A stretch of 51,019 nucleotides of DNA from Myxococcales bacterium (GCA_043775605.1 JAYVSF010000623.1:1-51019), one strand, 5' to 3'; positions 426-32,865 are shown, counted from the stretch's first letter. Notes: generated from the letters alone by a model not told the origin. Translations and numbers: made by a program.

Positions 426-2261
426 TCAGGTGAGGCCGTGACGCTTGAGCTTGGACAGGAAGGTGCGCAGCGGCATGGCGATGGCGCGGGCGGCGCGGGT
501 CTGGTTGCCGCCGTGGGCGCGCAGGGCCTCGCCGATGCGCGTGCGCTCGAGCTCCTCGATCTCGGTGGCGAGCGGGCGGAAGTGGGGCAGGCCGGGCTCG
601 GCGGCCGGGGCGTCCGCGGGCGGGGTGGCGACGGGCGGGGACGAGCCGGGGCCGGCGTCACGCGCGGCGCGGGCGTCGTCGTCGGCGGCGCTGGTCGCAG
701 GCGCGGCCAGGACGTCGTCGAGGTGCCAGTCCTCGAGCCGGGCGTCGCCGGCGGTGGCGACCAGGAAGTCGCACAGGTGCTTGAGCTCGCGGACGTTGCC
801 GGGCCAGGCGTGCTCGGCGAGGCGCTGCATCACCGCCGGCGCCACCAGCACCGGCGCACGGCCGGCGCGCGCGCTGGCCTCGTCGAGGAAGCGGCGGGCC
901 AGGATCGGGATCTCGCGCAGGCGGTCGCGCAGCGGCGGCAGCCACACCGTCGCGCCCGACAGCCGGAAGTAGAGATCCTGGCGAAAGCGACCGCGCTTCG
1001 ACTCGTCCTTGAGATCGCGGTTGGTCGCGGAGATCAACCGGAAGTCGACGGCGATCTCGCGGACGTCGCCGAGCCGCACCACCCGCTTGGTCTCGAGCAC
1101 GCGCAGGAGCTTGGCCTGCACGGTCAGCGCAAGCTCGCCGATCTCGTCGAGGAAGACGGTGCCGCCCTTCGCCAGCTCGAAGATACCGGGCTTGGCCGAG
1201 GTCGCGCCCGAGAACGCGCCGCGCTCGTGGCCGAACAGCTCGCTCTCGACCAGGCTCTCGGGCAGGGCCGCGCAGTTGAGCGTGACCCGCGCCTTGTCGC
1301 GCCGCGGCGACAGGTGGTGCAGCGCCAGCGCGACCAGCTCCTTGCCGGTCCCGGTCTCGCCGCCGATCAGCACCGGCAGCTCGGCCGCGGCCAGCCGCTC
1401 GACCAGGCCGTACAGGCGCGCCATCGCCGGATCGGCGATCATCACGGTCTGGTCGCCGAGCGCGAGCGCGCGCACCGCACCGGCGGCTCCCGCCCTCGTG
1501 CCCGGCGGCGCCGAGGTGGCGGCGGCGCGGGCCCCACCGAGCAGCGAGGCGACGTCGCACGCGTCGCGGGGGGCGGTGGCGTAGCCGAGCTGGGCCGAGG
1601 GCACGTCGGCGTGCAGCAGGTCGAGCGCGGTGGCGAGCCCATCGGCGTCGATCTCGGGCAGGAGCAGGGCCAGCTCATGATCGTGATCCCAGGCGGCGAC
1701 GTCGAGCGTGCGCAGGTGGCGGCCGAGCGCGCGGACCAGGGCGTGGCGATCGCCCTCGCCGGTCCGGACGTGGACCACCGCCAGCTCGCGGCCGAAGTGG
1801 ACGACCCGCTCGAGCTCGCGCCCGAGCTGGGTCCGCAGCTCGTCCCAGGTCGCGAGGGTGAAGCTGCGAGCCGGCGCGCTCGGGCCGTGGAACACCAGCA
1901 CCGCGGTGCCGATGGTCAGGACGTCGCCGCCGATCAGGTCGCGGCGCTCGATGCGCTGGTTGTTGACCAGGGTGCCGTTCTGGCTGCCGAGATCGATGAC
2001 CGTGGCCCGACCTTCGACCAGCTCGATGCGCGCGTGCTGGCGGGACACCGCGGTGTCGTTGAGCACGACCTCGCAGCCCGGGACCCGGCCGATGACGATG
2101 CCGCCGTCTCGCGGCAACGGCTGCATCCACGACGCGTCGCCGGCCACGACCAACAGGTACAGCCGGCCGGCGTCGCTCACGACGGCGGTCGGTCGGCCGA
2201 TCGCGGCCGTGGTCATGTTGTCGCGTGCCCCGCCGTGGGTGGCCACGGCGTCATCGTACAT
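426..2261 (-). CDS. Sigma-54-dependent transcriptional activator (bEBP) with an N-terminal FHA domain and a C-terminal Fis-type HTH
   Basis: ORF 426..2600. FHA segment: [53 protein letters not shown]+ sigma-54 interaction domain: Walker [15 protein letters not shown] (GAFTGA-type) loop, [17 protein letters not shown]-terminal HTH: [26 protein letters not shown]. Start taken at ATG 2261 (MYDD...); ATG 2216 is an alternative. The upstream part of the listed ORF is Arg/Cys-rich junk. Confidence 0.9.
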
Positions 2262-2366
2262 CGAGCGAACGGCATCACGCGCCCGGCGGATGCACCTCGC
2301 GTGCCGGTTCCGAGGATCCGAGCGGAGCTCGGGCCGGGGTTGAATATCGAGATCGGACCGGCACTC

Positions 2367-2400
2367 AGAGCGTGTGAATCTTTGCAGATTCACACGCTCT
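2367..2400. promoter_or_regulatory. Perfect 15-bp inverted repeat AGAGCGTGTGAATCT-ttgc-AGATTCACACGCTCT in the divergent EBP/kinase intergenic region (candidate operator or UAS)
   Basis: Arms at 2367-2381 and 2386-2400 are exact reverse complements. It is AT-richer than its surroundings. It lies about 105 bp upstream of the EBP start and about 150-180 bp upstream of the sigma-54-like element at 2548. Confidence 0.5.
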
Positions 2401-2547
2401 GTCGATCGGCTCGTCGACGAGGAACGTCGACGTCGCCTGTACGGAAGCGAGTTTGTTTCACAAACTCTCAGGGCCGGCCCGATCGATCGACAACACAGAG
2501 TTCTGGCCAACCCTGTGGTCGGCCGCGCGATCGACCGCCGCGTGGCT

Positions 2548-2563
2548 TGGCACGGCGCTTGGA
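2548..2563 (+). promoter_or_regulatory. Candidate sigma-54 promoter (TGGCACG-gcgc-TTGGA) upstream of the kinase gene
   Basis: The -24 element TGGCACG is perfect. The -12 element is TTGG instead of TTGC, at the correct GG-to-G spacing. It sits 32 nt upstream of ATG 2594. Confidence 0.3.
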
Positions 2564-2593
2564 CACAGCGCAGGATCGAGCACCGCGCCCAGC

Positions 2594-5500
2594 ATGCCAC
2601 CTGTCGACGAGCCCGCGATCGCGCCGGCCTGGAGCCCGCCGGCCCAGTTCGCCGAGTACCGGCTGATCCGCCGCCTCGGCGAGGGCGGCATGGGCCAGGT
2701 CTGGATCGCGCTCGACACCGTGCTCGATCGCCGGGTGGCGGTGAAGTTCCTCAGCGCGGAGCTCGAGCGCTCGCCCGGCGCCCACGAGCGATTCCTCCTC
2801 GAGGCGCGGGCGGCTGCGCGGCTCCAGCACCCCAACGTCGTGACCGTCTACCGGATCGGCGCGCTCGGCCACCGGCCCTACATCGTGTCGGAGCTGATCG
2901 ACGGCACGCCGCTGTCGCAGCTCGAGCGGCCGCTGTCGTCGGCGCGGGTGCTGGAGCTCGGGCTGGGCCTGGCCCGCGGGCTGGCCGCCGCCCACCGGCG
3001 CGGCGTGCTCCACCGCGACCTCAAGCCGGCCAACGCGATCCTCGCCGACGACGGCCAGGTCAAGCTGCTCGACTTCGGGCTGGCCAAGCTGCTCGAGCGG
3101 CCGGCGCCGGCGACCACCGGCGACCCCGGGCCGCCACCACCGACCGCCATCGCGGTGACGGTGGCGATGGGCTCACCCGGGGCCGACCCCCTCGCGGTCG
3201 GCGGCGCCGCCACCACGCCCTTGCCCGCGCCGGTCGGTACGCCGCCCCCGATCGCCGACGCCATCGCCCTGGCCGCCGACGAGCCGCGCGGGGCGCTGAC
3301 CGGCTTCGGCGTGGTGATGGGCACGCCGTATTACATGCCGCCCGAGACCTGGCTGGGCGAGCCCGCGACCCGCGCCTCCGACGTCTACGCGCTCGGGGTC
3401 GTGCTCTACGAGCTGTGCGCGGGCCGGCCGCCGCACGCCGGCGTCGCCGTCGGCGCGCTGGGTGCGGTGGTGGTGTCGACCGACGTTCCGCCGCTGGCCG
3501 TCGAGGTGCCCGGGGTCGAGCCCCGCCTGGCCGCGGTCATCGATCGTTGCCTGCTGCGCGACCCGGCCGGCCGCTACGCCACCGGCGAGGACCTGCTGCT
3601 GGCGCTCGAGGCGGTCCGCACCCTCGACCTGGTCCGCACCACCACCGGCAATCCCTATCGGGGCCTGTACCGGTTCGAAGCCGACCATCGCGGTGTCTTC
3701 TTCGGCCGGGCCACCGAGATCCGCGCGGTCGTCGAGCGGGTCAAGAACGAGGCGCTGATCGTGGTCGCCGGCGACTCCGGGGTCGGCAAGTCGTCGCTGT
3801 GCCGGGCCGGCGTGCTGCCGACCGTGCTCGACGAGGGCGTCGGCGACGGCCGGGCCTGGACCGCGGTCCGGCTGGTGCCCGGTCAGCGACCGATGACCGC
3901 GCTGGTGGCCGCGCTCGCGCTGCCGACAGCGACCTCGCCCGACTCGACGGTCGTCCTCGGCGGCGTGGCGCCGGACCAGGGCGAGCCGGCCGTGGGGTCG
4001 CCGTGGGGGTCGCACGCGCAACTGGTCCGCCAGGTGGTCGTCGCGCGCCGCGGCCGCGGCCTGATCGTCTTCGTCGATCAGCTCGAGGAGCTGGTGACCC
4101 TGGCCGAGCCGGCCGAGGCCGCCGACGCGGCCCAGCTCCTGGCCGAGCTGGGCGCGGGCGTGCCGGGGATCCGGGTGCTGACCACCGCGCGCTGCGACTT
4201 CCTGACCCGGCTGTCGGGGCTGCCGGCGCTGGGCCCGGCGATCGCCCGCGGGCTGTACCTGCTGCGGCCGATGGCGATCGACGCCCTGCGCGAGGCGGTG
4301 CTCGGCCCAGCGCGGGCCACCGGCGTCGCGTTCGACCCGCCCGCGCTCGTCGACGAGCTGGCCGCCGACGCCGCCGCCGCCGAGGGCGGGCTGCCGCTCC
4401 TGCAGTTCACGCTCGGCGAGCTGTGGGACGCCCACGATCGCGAGCGCCATGCCATCACCCGTGCGGTGGTCGAGCGGGTCGGCGGCACCCGCGGCGCGCT
4501 GACCCGGCACGCCGACGGCGTGGTCGCCGCGCTCTTGCCCGGCCAACGACTGCAAGCCCGGGCCGTGCTCATGCGCCTGGTCTCGGGCGCCGGCATCCGC
4601 GCCCGCCGGACCGAGGCCGAGCTGACCCACGGCGAGCCCGGGGCCGGCGACGCCCTCGCCGCGCTGGTCCGGGGCCGGCTGGTGGCGGCCCAGGCCGGCG
4701 AACCCGAGGCGGTGTTCGAGGTCGCCCACGAGGCCCTGCTGTCCGAATGGCGGACGTTGCGCGACTGGCTCGACGAGCGCGCCGATCAGCGGCTCGCGCT
4801 CGAGCGGCTCGCCGACGCCACCCGCGAGTGGCTGCGGCTCGACCGAACCCGCGAGCTGCTGTGGGGCGAGCGGGCCCTGGCCGACGCCGAGCTGGTGCCG
4901 ACCGCCGAGCTGAGCGCGGATCAGCGCGGGTTTCTGACCGCGTCCCGGCGCGAGCAGCTCCGCCGGCGCTGGCGGGTCCGGATCCTGGCCGCGGCGATCG
5001 TCGCCGCCGCGATCGCCGGCTACCTCGGCTACCGGGCCGTCGACGATCGGGCCCGCGCCCGCAAGGTCGCGAGCTACGTGACCGCCGGCAAGGGCGAGCT
5101 GTCCGCCGCCCGGACCGGCGCCGCCGCGATCGAGGTGCTGCGGGTGCGCGCGTTCGCGACCTTCGACGGCGGCGACCGCGCCGGCGGCGAGACGCTGTGG
5201 ACCGAGGTCATGGCCCAAGGCGATCAGGTCGCGGCCACCTACCGCGCCGCCAGCCGCTCGTTCGAGGCCGCGGTCACCGTCGACCACACCGCCGCGCGCG
5301 CCCGCACGCTCCTGGCCGACACGCTGTACGAGCGCGCGCTGATCGCCGAGCGCGAACGCCACGACTCCGACCGCGACGAGGCCCTCGAGCGCCTGCGCCT
5401 GTACGACGACGGCCACCGGCTGGCGGCCTGGGCCGCGCCCGCGACGGTGACGCTCACCACCACGCCGCCGGGCGCGCAGGTCCGGCTGGCCGCGGTCGTC

Positions 5501-25942: not shown

Positions 25943-27157
25943 TCAGGGCGCGAGCCGGTAGAAGCGGAGGGCCTTGCCACCGCGGGCGAAGCCCAGGTTC
26001 TTCTCGAGGACCCACAGCGTGTCGCCCGACCAGCCCCAGGTCAGCTTCTTCTTCGCCGCGAAGATGCGCGCGCGGCGCACGGCGCGGTTGCCGTCGACCT
26101 CGAACAGATCGAGATACTCGGGGTCGGCCTTCTGCCGGGCGACCGCCGTCGGGTTGACCGGGTCGACCACCAGCGAGAGCCACACCCGGTCGCCGCGCAT
26201 CGCCAGCCGGGCCGTCGCGGGGTCGTAGTTCGCCAGCGGGGGATCGAGCGTGATCGCCGTCGGCGCGCCGTCCCGCCAGAGCTGGAGGTCGCTGCCGTCG
26301 CCGGGGACGTGGACGAAGACCCGCTGACCATGGTGCTCGGTCAGGATGTCGAGGTTGCGTCGGTGCGCGAGCAGGTCAGGGATCGGTGCGTCCTTGATCC
26401 ACTTGCTGGTGACCAGGTCGTACATGGCCTGGGTGTCGGGGGACCGCTGGTCCTCGTGCCGGCGCCAGACCCCGCCGCGAAGCCCGGCGGCCACGGTGTG
26501 ATCGTCGACGAAGTAGTCGACCCGCAGATCGAGCTTGGCGTCGCGGCCATCGGTGCCGATGACCACCTTGCCGCCCAGCTTCGGCACGCGCTTCGCCGTG
26601 AGCAGGTCGAACAGCGCGATCTGGAACTGGTCGCCCTTGGCCGACGCGCTCCGGGTGTACGCCACGACCAGATCCTTGCCGCCGATCTTCCGCAGGGTGA
26701 GGTCGGTGGCGGCCGCGTGGCGCTTGACCACCTTGCCGGTCAGCTCGATCAGGGCGCCGGTCACCGGCCCACCGGCCGGGTCGTCCGCGACCACGAACAG
26801 GCGCGAGCCGAGCAGGTACATCCGCCGGACCGTGGGCATCACCGGCCCCAGGTCCACCTTCGCCTGGCTGACACCATCGGGCCCGAGCACGGTCGCCTCG
26901 GCCAGCGCGGCCCCGTCGGTCACCACCACCGCCAGGCGGGCGCCGTCGCTGGCCATCGGGTCGTCGACGAACCCGCGGTCGGGCACCAGGCTCCCGGTCG
27001 ACATCAGCCCCACCAGTTCGGGGGGCGGCGGCGCCGGCACGATCTTCGTCGGCCCGGGTCGAGGCGGCCCCGGCTGCGCCCCCGCCGGCTCGAGGGCGGC
27101 TGACACCACGAGAATGACGAACAGGGCGGCGACGCACGTGGCAGCTCGAGTGATCAT
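25943..27157 (-). CDS. Hypothetical secreted protein
   Basis: ORF 25943..27202; ATG 27157 gives MITRAATCVAALFVILVVSAALEPAGA. No recognisable domain. Its stop abuts the stop of the PEGA gene (TGATCA at 25940-25945). Confidence 0.6.
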   Translation of the reverse strand: MITRAATCVAALFVILVVSAALEPAGAQPGPPRPGPTKIVPAPPPPELVGLMSTGSLVPDRGFVDDPMASDGARLAVVVTDGAALAEATVLGPDGVSQAKVDLGPVMPTVRRMYLLGSRLFVVADDPAGGPVTGALIELTGKVVKRHAAATDLTLRKIGGKDLVVAYTRSASAKGDQFQIALFDLLTAKRVPKLGGKVVIGTDGRDAKLDLRVDYFVDDHTVAAGLRGGVWRRHEDQRSPDTQAMYDLVTSKWIKDAPIPDLLAHRRNLDILTEHHGQRVFVHVPGDGSDLQLWRDGAPTAITLDPPLANYDPATARLAMRGDRVWLSLVVDPVNPTAVARQKADPEYLDLFEVDGNRAVRRARIFAAKKKLTWGWSGDTLWVLEKNLGFARGGKALRFYRLAP

Positions 27158-27216
27158 GGCAGCACGGCCGGGAGTGCCACGAGGCCGCGCCGCATGCAAC
27201 ACGCCCGAGGCCCGCT

Positions 27217-27317
27217 GGTGTCAGCCACCGCAGCCCCGCCCGGAAGGTGTCAGCCACCGCAGCCCCGCCGGAAGGTGTCAGCCGCCCGAGTCGATCGACG
27301 CGCTGGTGTCAGCCACC
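27217..27317 (+). repeat. Motif cluster A: four phased copies of GGTGTCAGCCACC (one variant, GGTGTCAGCCGCC)
   Basis: Copies at 27217-27229, 27246-27258, 27274-27286 (variant) and 27305-27317, with a period of 28-31 bp. The first two units share the spacer GCAGCCCCGCC(C)GGAA. The last copy contains the psuG stop codon. Confidence 0.9.
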
Positions 27318-28223
27318 CAGACCCGCGAGCGCTACGGCAAGCCCCGCCCCTACCTCTGCGTTGTGACGAGCGAGTGACCGGTTAGCCTGCACCGCCCGCC
27401 CCGCCGTGACCCGCGCCAGCTGCGCAAGGAGGAATGGCGTGAGTCGCTTGCCGGTGATCGCAGCATCAGCGGCGGTGCGGAGGGCTTGCCCGATCGCCGC
27501 CTCGAGTTCGTCCGCGGGAAGTTCGTCCTGCTCGGGAATGGGGTTGCAGACCAGCACGCCGCCCTGCTGGAAGCGCGTCCACCGGTGCTGGCAGACGCGG
27601 GCCAAGTCAGCGAGGTTCTCCACGTGGTGCTCCAGGGCCAACCCCGACCGCCTGCCATAGAACGCCGGGAACTCTCGACATCGATAGCCCACCACCAGGA
27701 CACCGAGCGTCTCGAGCGTCTCCAGCGTGCGAGGAAGGTCGAGGATGGCCTTGGCGCCGGCCGACACCACGGCCAACGGCGCCCGCGCTAGCACGGTGAG
27801 GTCGTGCGAGACGTCGCTCGCGTCCCCGCGATGAACGCCGCCGATGCCGCCAGTCGCGAACACGCGGATCCCTGCGCGGACCGCCAACGTGGCGGTCGCG
27901 CTGACCGTCGTGGCCGCATCTGAACCCCGTGCGGTGTGCATGGCGAGATCGGTTGCGCCTGCCTTGGCGAACGCGGACCCCTGCTGCGCCACCACCGCCA
28001 GCGTGTCGGCATCGAGCCCGATCCGGACCTCGCCACGGACGATCGCGATCGTCGCGGGGACCGCGCCCCCGGCCCGCACGGTTGCCTCGATTTCGCGCGC
28101 GACTGCCAGGTTTTCGGGATACGGCAACCCGTGGGCGATGATCGTAGACTCGAGCGCGACGACCGGCGCGCCGTCGTCGAGCGCCGCCGCGACCTCGGAC
28201 GCGAGCACGAAGGGTGGGAGCAC
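27309..28223 (-). CDS. psuG: Pseudouridine-5'-phosphate glycosidase (IndA/PsuG family)
   Basis: ORF 27309..28253: ...SEVAAALDDGAPVVALESTIIAHGLPYPENLAVAREIE...VFATGGIGGVHRG...DVSHDL..L... The likely start is GTG 28223 (VLPPFVLASEV). The first 10 listed codons are encoded by motif copy B1. Confidence 0.85.
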   Translation of the reverse strand: MLPPFVLASEVAAALDDGAPVVALESTIIAHGLPYPENLAVAREIEATVRAGGAVPATIAIVRGEVRIGLDADTLAVVAQQGSAFAKAGATDLAMHTARGSDAATTVSATATLAVRAGIRVFATGGIGGVHRGDASDVSHDLTVLARAPLAVVSAGAKAILDLPRTLETLETLGVLVVGYRCREFPAFYGRRSGLALEHHVENLADLARVCQHRWTRFQQGGVLVCNPIPEQDELPADELEAAIGQALRTAADAAITGKRLTPFLLAQLARVTAGRAVQANRSLARHNAEVGAGLAVALAGLGG

Positions 28224-28238
28224 TAACGCAGGGTAGCA

Positions 28239-28274
28239 GGTGGCTGACACCACGACGCCCAGGTGGCTGACACC
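28239..28274 (-). repeat. Motif cluster B: two copies of GGTGGCTGACACC (reverse orientation relative to cluster A)
   Basis: Copies at 28239-28251 and 28262-28274, 23 bp apart, each preceded by CA. The second reads CAGGTG-GCTGA-CACCTG, a 6-bp stem with a 5-nt loop. Confidence 0.9.
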
Positions 28275-28341
28275 TGCGCCGCTGGCCGCATCGTGAGGCG
28301 CGTCGACGTCCGCACGCCACTGGCTCCTCGCCTAGCCTGGC

Positions 28342-28356
28342 GTCCGGTATTCGGAC
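28342..28356. promoter_or_regulatory. Dyad GTCCG-gtatt-CGGAC (candidate enhancer/operator) upstream of the RAYT-like gene
   Basis: The CGGAC half starts 56 nt upstream of the -24 GG at 28408. This is the same distance as the equivalent dyad upstream of comM. Confidence 0.45.
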
Positions 28357-28406
28357 ACTCAGGCCTGGCGACGACCTGCGTGTGTTGCAAATCAAGGGCT
28401 TGGGTT

Positions 28407-28422
28407 CGGCACGATCCGTGCT
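28407..28422 (+). promoter_or_regulatory. Candidate sigma-54 promoter cGGCACG-atcc-GTGCT
   Basis: Matches TGGCACG-N4-TTGCW at 11 of the 12 specified positions when the first T is included as a mismatch (10 of 12 strictly). GG-to-GC spacing is canonical. The C of the GC (28421) lies 14 nt before ATG 28435. Preceded by AATCAAGGGCTTG (WATCAANNNNTTR-like) at 28390-28402. Confidence 0.5.
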
Positions 28423-28434
28423 GTGGCGGGCGCC

Positions 28435-29646
28435 ATGGGCCACCCACTTCGCTGGAACCGTACCGACCTCATCTACGAAGTCACGATCGAGACCATCCAG
28501 GGACGCTACCTGCTGCGGCCGAACCGCGAGGTCCGCGACATCATCCTCGGGGTGATCAGCCGGGCCCAGGAGCTGTACCAAGCCATCCGCCTGTACGCGT
28601 TCGTCGTCACCCGCAACAGGTCGACGTTGCTCCTCTCCACCGGCGATGAAGAGCAACTGTCCAGGTTCATGGCCTACGTGCATGGTGAGGTCTCACGCAA
28701 GGTCGGTCGGCTGCTCGACTGGTCGGGCAAGCTGTGGGGTGGTCGATATCGCGCGCTCCCGGTCCTCGACGAGGAGGCGATCACCCAGCGGCTGCGCTTC
28801 GTCCTGTCCCAGGGCGTCGACGAGGGGCTGGTCGCCTCACCGCGACACTGGCCGGGGGCCTCGTGCGTCCCCGCCCTGCTCGGCACGATGAAGCTCGAGG
28901 GAGCGTGGGTCGACCGGGACCGCGAGGCCCGCCTCCGAGGGCTGGGGCTCGATCCTCCCGCCTCCGCGTACGTCCGGCCGTACCGGGTCGTGCTCACGCC
29001 GATCCCGGCGTGGGCGTCACTGCCGCGGACCGAGCTCGTCGCCCGCTACCAGGCCATCATCGAGTCGATCGAGCTCGAGCACCTGGTCATGCGCACCGCG
29101 CCGGTGCTCGACCCGATCGAGCTGCAGCGTCAGGATCCATTCGCCCGACCGGAACGCGCTCCTCGACGACGGCTCGCTCGCTTCTGTCATGCGACCTGCG
29201 CGACCTTGATCGCCGGCTTTCGGACCGCCTACCGACAATTCTGTGCCTCCTTCCGAACGGCCGCGAGCGCGCTCGGTCCTCCCTCGCCGACGAAGGCCGC
29301 GCTGGTCGCGCACTTCCCCGGCGGGAGCAACCCGAGGCCCGACCTGAGCGTGCCGCTGCCGGACGGTGAACTGCCACCATGGTGGAACGAGTCGTTCTCG
29401 ACGCCTCCGCCGTCTTCAGGCGATGAGACCGTCGTCGATGAAGGTGGAATGGAGTCGGGGTGCGAGCCTCCGACGTCGCCGTGGATCCGGCGGGTCGACG
29501 CCCGCGGGCCGCGCGGGTCGAGTCGGAGCCCGGGGCCGACGACCGCCCCCGCGCACCAGCGTCCGCCGAAACCGCGACGCGGCGGCGGGCAGCCGACCCG
29601 CGCCCTGACGCCCGCGCGACCTCCAACCCACGGGCCGCACCCGTGA
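28435..29646 (+). CDS. RAYT / IS200-like (Y1 transposase fold) protein with apparently degenerate catalytic motifs and a Pro/Arg-rich C-terminal tail
   Basis: ORF 28423..29646; ATG 28435. By-eye alignment to REP-associated tyrosine transposases: LIYEVTIETIQGRYLLRP..., IRLYAFVVTRNRSTLLL (where the HUH motif x-H-x-H-LL is expected), GKLWGGRYRALPVLDEEAITQRLRFVLSQGVDEGLVASPRHWPGAS (where RY-I/L-x-x-NP-V..GLV with the catalytic Tyr is expected). Confidence 0.6.
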   Translation: MGHPLRWNRTDLIYEVTIETIQGRYLLRPNREVRDIILGVISRAQELYQAIRLYAFVVTRNRSTLLLSTGDEEQLSRFMAYVHGEVSRKVGRLLDWSGKLWGGRYRALPVLDEEAITQRLRFVLSQGVDEGLVASPRHWPGASCVPALLGTMKLEGAWVDRDREARLRGLGLDPPASAYVRPYRVVLTPIPAWASLPRTELVARYQAIIESIELEHLVMRTAPVLDPIELQRQDPFARPERAPRRRLARFCHATCATLIAGFRTAYRQFCASFRTAASALGPPSPTKAALVAHFPGGSNPRPDLSVPLPDGELPPWWNESFSTPPPSSGDETVVDEGGMESGCEPPTSPWIRRVDARGPRGSSRSPGPTTAPAHQRPPKPRRGGGQPTRALTPARPPTHGPHP

Positions 29647-29649
29647 TCC

Positions 29650-29706
29650 GTCCGGCTGCCGGACATCATCGTCCGAATGCCGGACACATGTGGCCGAATC
29701 TCGGAC
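29650..29706. promoter_or_regulatory. Three phased dyads GTCCG-N5-CGGAC (21-bp period) upstream of comM
   Basis: GTCCGgctgcCGGAC at 29650-29664, GTCCGaatgcCGGAC at 29671-29685, and GGCCGaatctCGGAC at 29692-29706 (one mismatch). Centre-to-centre spacing is 21 bp, so they lie on the same helical face. Confidence 0.5.
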
Positions 29707-29735
29707 GGGGCCACGCAAGATCGAGGAGTTGCGCC

Positions 29736-29751
29736 CGGCACGCCGCGTGCA
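29736..29751 (+). promoter_or_regulatory. Candidate sigma-54 promoter cGGCACG-ccgc-GTGCA
   Basis: Same pattern as at 28407 (CGGCACG-N4-GTGCW). The C of the GC (29750) lies 15 nt before ATG 29765. Preceded by GATCGAGGAGTTG at the position equivalent to AATCAAGGGCTTG in the RAYT-like promoter. Confidence 0.5.
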
Positions 29752-29764
29752 CGCTGGACCCACC

Positions 29765-31354
29765 ATGCTCGCCCGCCTGACCTCTTCAACGCTACGCGGT
29801 ATCGACGCCATCCCGATCGAGGTCGAGGTCGACGTGGTCGGGGGCTTGCCCTCGTACCACGTCGTCGGGATGCCGGGGCCGTCGGTCCGAGAGGGGTCCG
29901 TGCGCATCCGGTCGGCGCTCGAGGCCGTCGGCCAGAGCCTGCCGAGCAAGAAGGTGACGGTCAACCTCGCGCCCGCTGATCTGCCCAAGCCGGGAGCCGG
30001 CTTCGATCTGCCGGTCGCCATCGGCGTGCTGGTCGCCGAGGGCGTGTATCCACATGCGCCGGTCGAGGGTCTGCTCATGGTCGGCGAGCTCGGCCTGGAC
30101 GGCACGATCCGCAAGGTGCGTGGTGCGCTCGCCGCAGCGATGATGGCGCGCGACCTGGGGATGCGCGGCATCCTGCTACCGCGCGCGTCGGCAGAGGAGG
30201 CGGCCGTCGTCGAGGGCCTGGAGGTCTACGGCGTCGGCCACCTGGCCGAGGTCATCGCCGCGCTGGCCGGGCTGGCCGAGCTGCCCCGGGGCACCTCGGC
30301 GCCACGACGTCCCCCTGCTAGCCTCGGCCTCGACCTGGCGGATGTCCGCGGGCAGGCCAGCGCTCGCAGCGCGGTCGAGATCGCGGTCGCCGGCGGTCAC
30401 AACCTCCTGCTGATGGGCCCGCCGGGCATCGGCAAGTCCATGCTGGCGCGGCGCATCCCCACGATCTTGCCGGCCTTGAGCCACGAGGAGGCGCTCGAGG
30501 TGACCAAGATCTACTCGGCGGTCGGGCTCGCCGATGGACTCGTGGTCGACCGCCCCTTTCGAGCCCCTCACCACACGGTCAGCACGGCGGCGCTACTCGG
30601 TGGGGGCTCGGCACCGCGGCCCGGCGAGATCTCGCTCGCCCATCACGGCGTGCTGTTCCTCGACGAGCTCCCCGAGTTTCAGCGCCATGCGCTCGAAGCG
30701 CTGCGCCAGCCGCTCGAGGACCGCCACGTGACGATCGGCCGGGCGCACAGCACGATCCGGCTCCCGGCCAGCTTCCTGCTGGTCGCGGCGGCCAACCCCT
30801 GCCCCTGTGGCTGGGCCGGCTCTCAGCTGCGCGAGTGCGTCTGCTCGGGCACCGCGGTCGAGCGCTACCGGAGTCGCCTCAGCGGGCCGCTGCTCGACCG
30901 CATGGACCTCCAGGTCTCGACGCAGCCGGTGGCGATCAGCGAGCTGCGTAGCCAGCGCCCAGGCGAGTCATCGGCAAGCGTGCGAGCCCGGGTCGAGGAT
31001 GCCCGGGCACGGCAGGCCCGTCGTCTTGCGCCCTTCAGGCTGCGGACCAACGCGGAGATGACTCCGGCGGCGACCCGAGCGACCTGCGCACTCGACGCCG
31101 CGTCGGAAGCGTTTCTCGCCAAGGTGGCCGGCGCGCGCCACAGCATGAGCGCACGGGCGGTCGACCGCATCATCAAGGTGGCGCGGACGATCGCGGACCT
31201 CCAGGGCTGCGACGAGATCGACCACGAGCACGTCGGCGAGGCCGCTGGCTACCGGGCGCTCGAGCGCGAGCCGGCCATTGACCCTCGGCCGTTCATCGCG
31301 GGCCTCCACGGTCGTACGCGCGCCGGCCAGCCCGCGACCGGCGAGCCGGGTTGA
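29765..31354 (+). CDS. comM: YifB/ComM-family Mg-chelatase-like AAA+ ATPase
   Basis: In frame with ORF 29690..31354; ATG 29765 gives [52 protein letters not shown]...[24 protein letters not shown]. Walker A: [13 protein letters not shown]. Also [11 protein letters not shown] and CPCGW...C.C. Confidence 0.9.
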
Positions 31355-31428: not shown

Positions 31429-32787
31429 ATGTCGGCCCCTCCACCAACGACGCCCGGGCCGGGCCGCGGTTTCGCCCGCCCCGGATGGACATCGTCGCCC
31501 GAGTCGCGAAAGAATCGACGGGTGGAAGTTCCCACCCGACCGAAGGTCGGCTTCGTCCTGTCCGGTGGCGGCTCACGCGGGGCGTACGAGGCTGGGATCA
31601 TCCAGTACTTGCGCGAGGATCTCCCGCGCCGTCTTGGCCACCACGTCCCGATCGACATCGTCACCGGCACCAGCGTCGGGGCGATCAACGCGACCTTCGT
31701 CGCCGCGACCGCTGACGAGCCCGCCACCCAGGGCCAGCGGCTGGTCGCGGCCTGGAGCGCCCTTCGCATCGAGGAGATGATCGGCCTCGGCGCCTGGGAC
31801 GCCCTGCGGGCGCTCAAGATCGTCATGGGTCGGGATGTCCAGCCCGCGCCCGGAAGCTTCCGGTACGGTGGCCTCCTCGACACGAGCGGCCTGGAACGCT
31901 TCGTGATCAAGCACATCCCCTGGCACGGGATGGAGCGCAACCTGCGGAGCCGGGCGATCCACGCCATCGCGGTGTCAGCCACCCACGTCGGATCCGGCCA
32001 CACGGTCGTGTTCGTGTCAGCCGCCGATCCCGTCCCGGTGAGCTGGAGTCGCGACCCGTTCGTCCGCCACCGGGCCGCGCGCATCGGTCCGCGCCACGTC
32101 CTGGCCTCGGCGGCGATTCCGCTGCTGTTCCCGTCGGTCAAGATCGGCGGCGAGTTCTTCACGGACGGCGGGTTGCGGCAGAACACGCCGATGTCGCCGG
32201 CCATCCGGCTGGGCGCGGACAAGATGCTGCTGGTATCGCTGCGCCACGTCGCCGATTCGGAGAGCGCGCAGGTCGAGAAGGAGCGCGTGGAGGCGTCTCC
32301 GCGGCCCCTGTTCCTGGTCGGCAAGGCGCTCAACGCGCTGATGCTCGATCACACCGAGTACGACCTCGATCGTATGCAGCGGGTCAACCACATCCTCGCC
32401 GCCGGCACGGCCGCGTTTGGTCCCGAGTTCGTCGACGTCATGAACCGCGAACTCGCCAAGTTGCGGGGCGCGCCGGTGCGTCCGATCGACGCCTTCCACA
32501 TCCGCCCTTCGGAGGACATCGGTGCGCTGGCCCACGACTTCGTCGCCAGTGGACGGGTCCTGGTCCAGAGCCGCGTGACCCGCCGCCTGCTGCACCGGCT
32601 CGCCGAGAGCGAAGCGCCCCACGAGAACGACCTCCTGTCCTACCTGCTCTTCGACGGCAACTGGGCGGCCGAGCTCATCGCCCTGGGGCGACGTGACGCC
32701 CTGGCAAGGGAGGAGGACTTCGTGCGGTTCTTTACCTCGGAGGGCAACAGCATGCGACGGGAGACTCCGACCGCGGCCCTGCCGTGA
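31429..32787 (+). CDS. Patatin-like phospholipase
   Basis: ORF 31426..32787 (GTG 31426 / ATG 31429). Oxyanion motif [16 protein letters not shown], nucleophile elbow GTSVG, catalytic Asp motif FFTDGGL. Confidence 0.85.
31971..32025 (+). repeat. Intragenic copies of the 13-nt motif inside the patatin gene (GGTGTCAGCCACC exact; GTGTCAGCCGCC variant)
   Basis: 31971-31983 is an exact 13/13 match. 32014-32025 matches the variant seen in cluster A. Both are read as Val-Ser-Ala using the TCA Ser codon. Confidence 0.8.
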
Positions 32788-32789
32788 GC

Positions 32790-32865
32790 GGTGGCTGACA
32801 CCATCGCCCGCGCGTCCGGCGGGTGGCTGACACCATCGCCCGCGCGTCCGCGGGTGGCTGACACC
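32790..32865 (-). repeat. Motif cluster C: three phased copies of GGTGGCTGACACC
   Basis: Copies at 32790-32802, 32822-32834 and 32853-32865. The first two units are near-identical 31-32-bp repeats (GGTGGCTGACACCATCGCCCGCGCGTCCG...). The cluster starts 3 nt after the patatin stop and ends 74 nt before the ABC exporter start. Confidence 0.9.

Follow-up and report, generated by a model that had tools for sequence, protein, structure and literature searches.

Recombination genes of uncultured myxobacteria share a predicted compact sigma-54 promoter module with phased upstream dyads

Classical sigma-54 promoters that combine an enhancer-binding protein (EBP) with integration host factor (IHF) include those of the NtrC-glnAp2, NifA-nifH, XylR-Pu, and PspF-pspA systems, and the known sigma-54 regulons serve nitrogen, motility, and envelope functions together with a small number of stress-related ones. 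Competence regulons are governed by Sxy/TfoX and CRP-S in Pasteurellaceae and Vibrionaceae and by ComX or ComK in Gram-positive bacteria. Here, we analyzed a 51,019-nt stretch of DNA (72.6% G+C) from a Myxococcales bacterium (GCA_043775605.1, JAYVSF010000623.1:1-51019), hereafter termed the window, in which comM and the preceding gene share an upstream arrangement of inverted repeats (dyads; GTCCG-N5-CGGAC) and a sigma-54-like -24/-12 element. The preceding gene encodes a protein resembling the tyrosine transposases associated with repetitive extragenic palindromes (REPs), or RAYTs. With a probability of roughly 0.7, we consider that this arrangement represents the classical sigma-54/EBP/IHF architecture in compact form, driving a recombination regulon in Kofleriaceae-type myxobacteria. 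In a literature search, no account of recA, comM, or radC under sigma-54 control was found, and nothing pertinent on the dyad, on sigma-54 DNA-damage control in myxobacteria, or on leaderless sigma-54 transcripts.

The RAYT-like gene (28435-29646, plus strand) encodes a 403-aa protein with the Y1/HUH transposase fold, and comM (29765-31354, plus strand) encodes a 529-aa Mg-chelatase-like AAA+ helicase of the YifB/ComM type. The original prediction had registered the two upstream regions on the GG of the -24 element (28408 and 29737) and described four co-registered elements, all of which were recovered at the same positions. The RAYT-like gene is preceded by one dyad, GTCCGGTATTCGGAC (28342-28356), a predicted upstream activating sequence centred approximately 84 nt before the predicted start site. 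Upstream of comM, the dyads GTCCGGCTGCCGGAC (29650-29664; centre approximately -105), GTCCGAATGCCGGAC (29671-29685; approximately -84), and GGCCGAATCTCGGAC (29692-29706; approximately -63) follow one another in the 21-bp phase that had been proposed; the first two are exact and the third carries one mismatch (GGCCG). The offset between 28408 and 29737 aligns the -84 dyads and also the IHF-like blocks AATCAAGGGCTTG (28390-28402, plus strand) and GATCGAGGAGTTG (29719-29731, plus strand), which have the same register, WATCAR-N4-TTR, with TT 8 and 7 nt before GG. The predicted sigma-54 -24/-12 elements follow at 28407-28422 (CGGCACGATCCGTGCT) and 29736-29751 (CGGCACGCCGCGTGCA), both on the plus strand; GGCACG-N4-GTGC is exact at 28408 and 29737, and one further copy lies on the minus strand at 2292.

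We compared the window with nine contigs representing seven relatives, whose RAYT-like proteins were approximately 62-79% identical to that of the window, giving eight orthologous loci. The order psuG, RAYT-like gene, comM, and patatin-like gene was the same in all eight. A MAFFT alignment of both upstream regions showed that the invariant columns were the dyad half-sites, a TT, GGC, TGC, and ATG, and that the spacers varied, as did the 5 nt at the centre of each dyad. The phylogenetic footprint upstream of comM, proposed earlier as a check, thus came out in favour of the prediction, with the dyads and the GG and TGC of the -24/-12 element invariant. In the orthologues, comM has three dyads and the RAYT-like gene one to three. 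With the start site set 12 nt past the -12 C, the dyad centres were fixed at -105, -84/-85, and -64, and their spacing of 20-22 bp places the multiple inverted repeats on the same helical face. The GGCCG variant of the third comM dyad was found in seven of the eight loci; the remaining locus, L007, retains GTCCG, and its middle comM dyad has a 6-nt spacer. The half-sites, 10 bp apart from centre to centre, fit a putative dimeric helix-turn-helix protein. Another conserved block, CTGGCnCCTCGnnTAGCCTGGC (window positions 28319-28341), adjoins the RAYT-like dyad on its 5' side and occupies the same position in L001, L003, L005, and L008. Its GG and GC are separated by 11 rather than 10 nt, which excludes a sigma-54 site; the block may be part of the promoter of the divergent psuG (27309-28253, minus strand), and its (G/C)TAGCC, immediately before a hairpin, is reminiscent of the GTAG found in E. 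coli REPs.

Both -24/-12 elements of the window are palindromic (GCACG-atc-CGTGC and GCACGC-c-GCGTGC). Most orthologues have lost the palindrome but kept GG and TGC, which indicates that the conserved feature is the promoter consensus and not a hairpin; we therefore rejected hairpins and a second dyad site as explanations of these palindromes. The same observation is among those that make it very improbable that the palindromes of the module act in RNA, as hairpins of a 5' untranslated region or of read-through transcripts (attenuators, terminators, or processing sites). The dyads and both -24/-12 elements of the window can form short hairpins, and the comM dyads directly follow the stop codon of the RAYT-like gene; however, the stems are invariant in sequence and show no covariation, T-tracts are absent from positions 28150-29900, and dyads are also found ahead of genes whose neighbours are divergent or convergent. 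Neither a sigma-70-like promoter nor an intrinsic terminator was detected in the same interval.

Beyond the orthologues, dyads near a GGCACG-type element, for which a genome scan had been suggested, recurred in more than 100 further loci with the same geometry. A scan of species-representative genomes for tandem dyads only, with the promoter absent from the query, returned at least 115 loci, 70 from Kofleriaceae, Haliangiales, or other myxobacterial metagenome-assembled genomes (MAGs) and 45 from other phyla; among the matches listed, several genomes gave two or three loci each. The offsets between dyads and matches to a sigma-54 position weight matrix peaked at 46, 56-57, 66-68, 76-78, and 86-88 nt in the 70 listed myxobacterial loci, and no peak appeared in the 45 listed non-myxobacterial loci. 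A metagenome scan, queried with two dyads followed after any gap of 29-43 nt by GGC-N8-TGC, returned at least 120 loci with at least 123 sites. Among the matches listed, the gap between the last dyad and GG was 30-32 nt in 28 cases, 40-43 nt in 86, and 33-39 nt in nine, a bimodal distribution with modes at approximately 31 and 41 nt, one helical turn apart. Such helical phasing of dyads and -24/-12 element is a requirement of an activator acting from a short distance. At the free positions of these listed matches, T preceded GG in 58 of 85 and T or A followed TGC in 79 of 85, against a T background of approximately 14%; further free positions read A/C/G after GGC and T before TGC. GG and GC stand 10 nt apart within TGGCAC-N5-TTGCW in both window elements and, by their free positions, in 113 further promoters, which reproduces the near-consensus sigma-54 element that had been proposed for the two genes.

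The position of the dyads bears on whether they could instead be operators of a LexA-like or other DNA-damage repressor, with an incidental -24/-12 element and a promoter of another type in use. The genes behind the module (recA, nucleases, and transposase-like genes; see below) do form an SOS-like set, a 15-bp palindrome is also typical of SOS boxes, and a window-wide scan for sigma-54 sites was not enriched. A repressor is nevertheless unlikely: the sites lie at -64 to -105 and never overlap the sole conserved promoter-like element, they occur as phased triplets whose distance to GG is quantised by one helical turn, the free positions reproduce the sigma-54 consensus, and no alternative sigma-70-like promoter was found in the interval given above.

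For the IHF-like block, positions were compared in 40 promoters (orthologues and genome matches) and 113 metagenome promoters, among the matches listed. Counted from GG, the positions that were conserved against a G+C-rich background were T/C at -16/-15, TT at -8/-7 (up to 1.6 bits), and R at -6. They coincide with the register of the IHF core WATCAR-N4-TTR, and AATCAAGGGCTTG fits this core fully; IHF is a reasonable candidate for binding at the block.

The distance between promoter and start codon was also conserved. ATG follows the -12 C after 13 nt in the RAYT-like gene and 14 nt in comM in the window, and after 13-15 nt in every orthologue. Across the scans, this gap had a sharp mode at 13-14 nt, comprising 44 of approximately 115 metagenome promoters listed and most genome matches, so that the predicted near-zero leader without a Shine-Dalgarno (SD) sequence, first noted for these two genes, is both conserved and the commonest arrangement. 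Only three of 43 short-gap genes had an SD-like 4-mer. The base before the start codon was C in 39 of the 43, which fits initiation with a pyrimidine at -1 and, at +1, the purine (A or G) that opens the start codon. An SD-like 4-mer was present in 13 of 25 genes whose leaders were longer, recA and the small SSB-tail proteins described below among them. The frequent presence of SD sequences in long leaders and their rarity in short ones is expected of a true promoter with a fixed start site. ATG was not enriched in the short-gap genes (31 ATG and 12 GTG) relative to those with longer leaders (20 ATG, 8 GTG, and 3 TTG), a comparison that lends no support to leaderless expression. The short-gap mRNAs are predicted to be leaderless or nearly so. 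In L008 (5275) and L006 (1580), the automatic comM calls start at the wrong ATG, inside the dyad array and within the gene, respectively, and the conserved MLAR... start of comM lies approximately 13 nt past the -12 C; leaderless genes of the comM type are likely prone to mis-annotation.

From the observed conservation, geometry, consensus, and gene content, we infer the following mechanism. Both genes would be transcribed from sigma-54 (RpoN) promoters that require an enhancer-binding AAA+ activator. Activator dimers would occupy the GTCCG-N5-CGGAC dyads, which share one helical face at 21-bp intervals with centres at approximately -64, -84, and -105. The TC...TTG block at approximately -41 to -29, which is IHF-like, would probably bend the short intervening DNA, allowing the assembled activator to reach the closed complex at GGCACG-N4-NTGC. 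Initiation would then take place on the start codon or 2-3 nt before it, yielding leaderless or near-leaderless mRNAs. The inducing signal may be DNA damage, incoming DNA, or a similar cue.

Several points weigh against this mechanism. Within the window, one-mismatch dyads occurred at chance level, the sigma-54 consensus scan gave 8 matches against 6.1 expected, and the two upstream 83-nt stretches were 49% identical, the best pairing of the window but with 41 matches against 40 for the runner-up. By these figures, the likeness of the two regions might be a product of chance in a 73% G+C genome. We count that explanation as refuted: exact GTCCG-N5-CGGAC dyads were approximately 9-fold over expectation (five copies against 0.57, a number reached in 0 of 100 shuffles), and the co-registered blocks were conserved in eight loci and recurred with the same geometry in more than 100 others. 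Two of the five exact dyads (4741 and 5101) lie inside a long open reading frame (ORF). The significance of the arrangement rests on the co-registered blocks together with the comparative data, and the window alone is not compelling. The two regions as copies of a repeat or of a miniature inverted-repeat transposable element were rejected, the ungapped identity being 49% and the match limited to the blocks.

Further points against the sigma-54/EBP/IHF mechanism concern its parts. The enhancer sites would be unusually near the promoter (-64 to -105). The RAYT-like copy of the block between them had originally been matched to the IHF consensus; the register and positional conservation of the block agree with this, its A and R positions are weak, its flank is G+C-rich, not A/T-rich, and the block itself is GC-rich and abuts the -24 element. 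A leader of 2-3 nt, together with 12 GTG starts among 43 short-gap genes, would mean poor translation by E. coli rules. A scan for GAFTGA in approximately 190 loci found no EBP gene adjacent to any of them, and rpoN was absent from the window and from the compared loci. Approximately 30 of the 70 listed myxobacterial tandem-dyad loci had no detectable sigma-54 element, eight of them being arrays beside DnaA boxes; the dyad-binding factor may have other roles there, and the mechanism leaves these arrays unexplained. The metagenome matches were chosen by a query that contained GGC-N8-TGC, and related members of the same gene families recur among them, so that their counts are not independent events, and all compared sequences are MAG and metagenome contigs from uncultured organisms.

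The GAFTGA scan agrees with the original statement that no cognate EBP is evident nearby, and an activator encoded beside its target was rejected on this basis. Among the matches listed, the scan found three EBP genes only, each 3-4 kb from a dyad array, one of which holds a dyad-like match (L184); the EBP of L110 matched that of the window only in the AAA+ core. The dyad sequence itself is not known to match any activator site, and the literature search gave none. The window encodes a protein with FHA, Sigma54_activat, and HTH_8 domains (426-2600, minus strand), which suggests that the organism uses sigma-54. This EBP is unlikely to be the cognate activator, as it adjoins its own sigma-54-like site and, as had been noted, palindromes that differ from GTCCG-N5-CGGAC. 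The palindromes (2360-2600) comprise GCGTGTGAATCT-ttgc-AGATTCACACGC at approximately 2371-2398 and GAGTTTGT-ttc-ACAAACTC; the sigma-54-like sequence TGGCACGGCGCTTGGA (2548-2563) precedes by 30 nt a Ser/Thr kinase-like ORF whose ATG is at 2594. The EBP and the kinase-like ORF probably form a separate EBP/target pair.

To describe the gene content, the first plausible ORF behind each promoter was taken and clustered; the ORF calls were mechanical, and some singletons were clearly in the wrong frame. The largest cluster comprised 45 Y1/RAYT-like genes (of approximately 115 listed promoters with an ORF called) in two subfamilies, with the H.H motif kept in those long enough to read. The second cluster, among the matches listed, comprised 10 small proteins of 91-134 aa; they have a Gly/Ala/Pro-rich linker, and every one terminates in ...[LIV]PF, which is the C-terminal tip signature of single-stranded DNA-binding protein (SSB). 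The third comprised seven Rpn/YhgA proteins (Transposase_31). Further listed clusters and single genes encoded six RadC, three RecA, at least five Uma2 endonucleases, one XamI-type restriction endonuclease, two additional ComM, a 151-aa family, and a trypsin-like protease; RecA, RadC, Uma2, Transposase_31, and RE_XamI were among the Pfam names assigned. RecA, ComM, and Uma2 each formed a cluster of 2-3 members. L044 shows dyad arrays at comM and at recA within a single genome. None of dprA, lexA, uvr, imuAB-dnaE2, or DNA-uptake genes was seen among the approximately 150 promoters listed. The DNA-processing module proposed for the RAYT-like gene and comM thus takes in, as a shared cis-module, recA and radC along with SSB-tail proteins, nucleases, and numerous Y1 genes, and the set resembles a putative recombination and DNA-processing programme with a content like that of competence or SOS regulons.

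Some of these families showed additional features. The ...[LIV]PF proteins (L037, L061, L087, L144, L149, L172, L179, L192, L211, and L233) have normal SD leaders and a conserved N-terminal domain of approximately 60 aa followed by a low-complexity linker; neither they nor the 151-aa family had a match in Pfam, NCBIfam, or PDB sequence searches. The second Y1-like subfamily (approximately 295 aa; MSLPRxVIPGRFYMVTRRCTQRQFLLRPD...SNHHHT) has an intact HUH motif and matched NCBIfam REP_Tyr_transpos with E=3e-10, under the cutoff. It was found in L033, L070, L072, L122, and approximately 30 metagenome loci (e.g., L148, L156, L181, and L183), is the most frequent single gene behind the module among the matches listed, and usually belongs to the 41-nt phase class. 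L044, a more distant Myxococcales MAG, has three comM dyads with a 6-nt centre, of the type GTCCGG-N4-CCGGAC (1740-1880), followed by the element GGCACGGAGCTTGAA, in which GC is changed to GA, 24 nt before the ATG; this comM module may be a degenerate or divergent version, and recA there has the canonical module.

The assignments of the two window genes differed in strength. ComM scored 536 bits against TIGR00368 (cutoff, 362), which passes the curated ComM/YifB threshold, and matched PF13541 (ChlI), PF01078 (Mg_chelatase), and PF13335 (Mg_chelatase_C). The RAYT-like protein had no Pfam match and matched NCBIfam REP_Tyr_transpos (NF047646) over residues 6-140 with E=6.9e-9 and 35.7 bits against a cutoff of 80; its family profile matches ISDra2 TnpA at the HUH strand. 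Its AlphaFold model had pLDDT mostly above 85 (means of 10-residue blocks) over residues approximately 31-220, and the best structural match was 4ER8_A, the E. coli RAYT with a REP hairpin (E=8.9e-6; TM-score normalized to the target, 0.70). The family is small, with 29 proteins in 5.8 billion sequences, and Kofleriaceae was the single taxon given among the source names. In the alignment, the HUH motif is replaced throughout the comM-linked clade (P0001-P0015), reading R-S-T in the window protein, and nearly every member has F, A, or H at the Tyr of RLRY (Phe in the window protein), a residue that P0006 retains; more distant relatives keep NH.H and RLRY. Because the HUH motif and the Tyr are lost in this clade, the RAYT-like protein is, judged from its sequence, a conserved catalytically dead derivative.

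The abundance of Y1/RAYT-like genes raises the question of whether the dyads are REP-like or transposon-end hairpins bound by these proteins, in which case the arrangement would mark a mobile element, or a promoter cassette that had been mobilised, instead of an enhancer. Such genes are the commonest behind the module, the RAYT-like fold matches a RAYT bound to a REP hairpin, the RAYT-like gene of the window has dyads on both sides, and dyad arrays without a promoter exist. However, dyads lie downstream of only four of 35 complete Y1-like genes, on which ground we rejected them as REPs flanking RAYT genes, and those downstream in the window are the dyads of comM, at a fixed distance from its promoter. 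The half-sites are invariant in sequence and not merely in pairing, with a variable centre of 5 nt; the strict phasing with the sigma-54 element also holds at the unrelated recA, radC, rpn, and uma2; spacers at 49% identity do not point to recent copies; and the window protein lacks the HUH motif and the Tyr. We regard the REP-like origin as quite unlikely, and the sigma-54/EBP/IHF architecture is retained as the preferred reading of the dyads.

A distinct short repeat, GGTGGCTGACACC, occurs near the RAYT-like gene, with 12 copies in the window against 0.2 expected. The copies (27095-27317, 28239-28274, 31971-31983, 32790-32865, and also 24670) are mostly intergenic tandem units of approximately 28-31 bp and the motif is able to form the pairing CAGGTG-GCTGA-CACCTG; most orthologous loci likewise have copies ahead of the RAYT-like gene. 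GGTGGCTGACACC represents a REP-like repeat family of the lineage. Beyond comM, the window continues with the patatin-like gene and an ABC transporter.

The promoter-less arrays beside DnaA boxes have a setting of their own. In L010, L013, L025, L028, L071, L075, L078, and L079, the non-coding region that directly follows glgA is conserved and has a convergent Sel1-repeat gene as its other neighbour (checked in L025 and L071). It contains four to six GTCCG-N5-CGGAC dyads, mostly at a spacing of approximately 21-23 bp, beside DnaA boxes (e.g., L071, 2080-2470; L025, 4037-4520), and two boxes of L071, at 2170 and 2238, match TTATCCACA perfectly. A block, CCTGTC(A/G)ACAA-N20-GGGTTATTCACAAC, recurs across the glgA-adjacent loci, and these arrays showed no sigma-54 element and no Rfam match. 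The region looks like a candidate oriC-type region that carries the dyads of the module.

A wider proposal, which we put forward tentatively and hold to be somewhat short of even odds, is that in Kofleriaceae-type myxobacteria one EBP controls a sigma-54 recombination programme comprising recA, an SSB-tail protein, radC, comM, Rpn, Uma2, and XamI nucleases, and dozens of HUH Y1 genes, with mostly leaderless transcripts. The dead RAYT-like protein would be a domesticated, fixed partner of ComM, and the dyad factor would link the programme to replication through the oriC-like arrays. If the sigma-54 prediction for the module holds, recombination genes would be subject to a third logic, gated by an activator and with essentially no basal expression, beside LexA-type repression and the competence sigma factors or CRP-S. 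Sigma-54 promoters would routinely yield leaderless mRNAs, and the defined cis-motif would provide a means of finding the activator and signal in a poorly studied myxobacterial family. A protein with a RAYT fold would have lost catalysis while being conserved beside ComM and co-regulated with it, which suggests an accessory role in recombination through binding of hairpins or single-stranded DNA.

Compared with known systems, the module shares with RAYT/REP systems (E. coli TnpA-REP; PDB ID: 4ER8) the RAYT fold of the N-terminal 140 residues and the abundant short GGTGGCTGACACC repeats near the RAYT-like gene. It differs from them in that the comM-linked clade lacks the HUH motif and, in nearly all members, the catalytic Tyr, in the long extra C-terminal part of the 403-aa protein, and in that the module dyads are predicted upstream enhancer sites and not flanking REPs. 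Like the RtcR/sigma-54-RtcBA RNA-repair operon, the module would place nucleic-acid repair genes under a predicted sigma-54 activator; RtcR, by contrast, controls a single operon, acts on RNA repair and not DNA, and is a CARF-domain activator encoded beside its target. The combination of recA, nucleases, and transposase-like genes under one palindromic motif resembles the SOS (LexA) regulon and LexA-independent damage regulons (PafBC, DriD, DdrO/PprI, and DdiA), whereas the predicted architecture has an activator acting at a distance and not an operator overlapping a sigma-70 promoter, and no lexA, uvr, or imuAB-dnaE2 was seen among the listed module genes. In Myxococcus xanthus, sigma-54-dependent regulators are reported to change after mitomycin C treatment, and no sigma-54 damage regulon was described (DdiA study, PMC12288472).

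The module has in common with competence regulons the DNA-processing genes that are the hallmark of late competence, namely comM, radC, recA, and one for an additional SSB-type protein. It differs from them in its predicted control by sigma-54 and an EBP instead of CRP-S or an alternative sigma-70-family factor, in its many nuclease and Y1-transposase-like genes, and in that no dprA or uptake genes were seen among the approximately 150 listed promoters. The closest parallel in mechanism is with the classical sigma-54/EBP promoters, which likewise have a GG-N10-GC element within TGGCAC-N5-TTGCW, several upstream dyads on one helical face, an IHF-type consensus between enhancer and promoter (an IHF-like block in the module), and an activator gene unlinked to many targets, as is predicted for the module. 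In contrast to these, the module is very compact (predicted enhancer, -64 to -105; IHF-like core, approximately -41 to -29); it has two discrete phase classes 10 bp apart; most of its transcripts are predicted to be leaderless; and its targets are recombination and repair genes and not the nitrogen, flagellar, envelope, or stress genes of classical sigma-54 control. The proposed mechanism is itself classical; its novelty lies in how compact the geometry is, in the two discrete phase classes, in a predicted output of mostly leaderless mRNAs, and, above all, in the targets.

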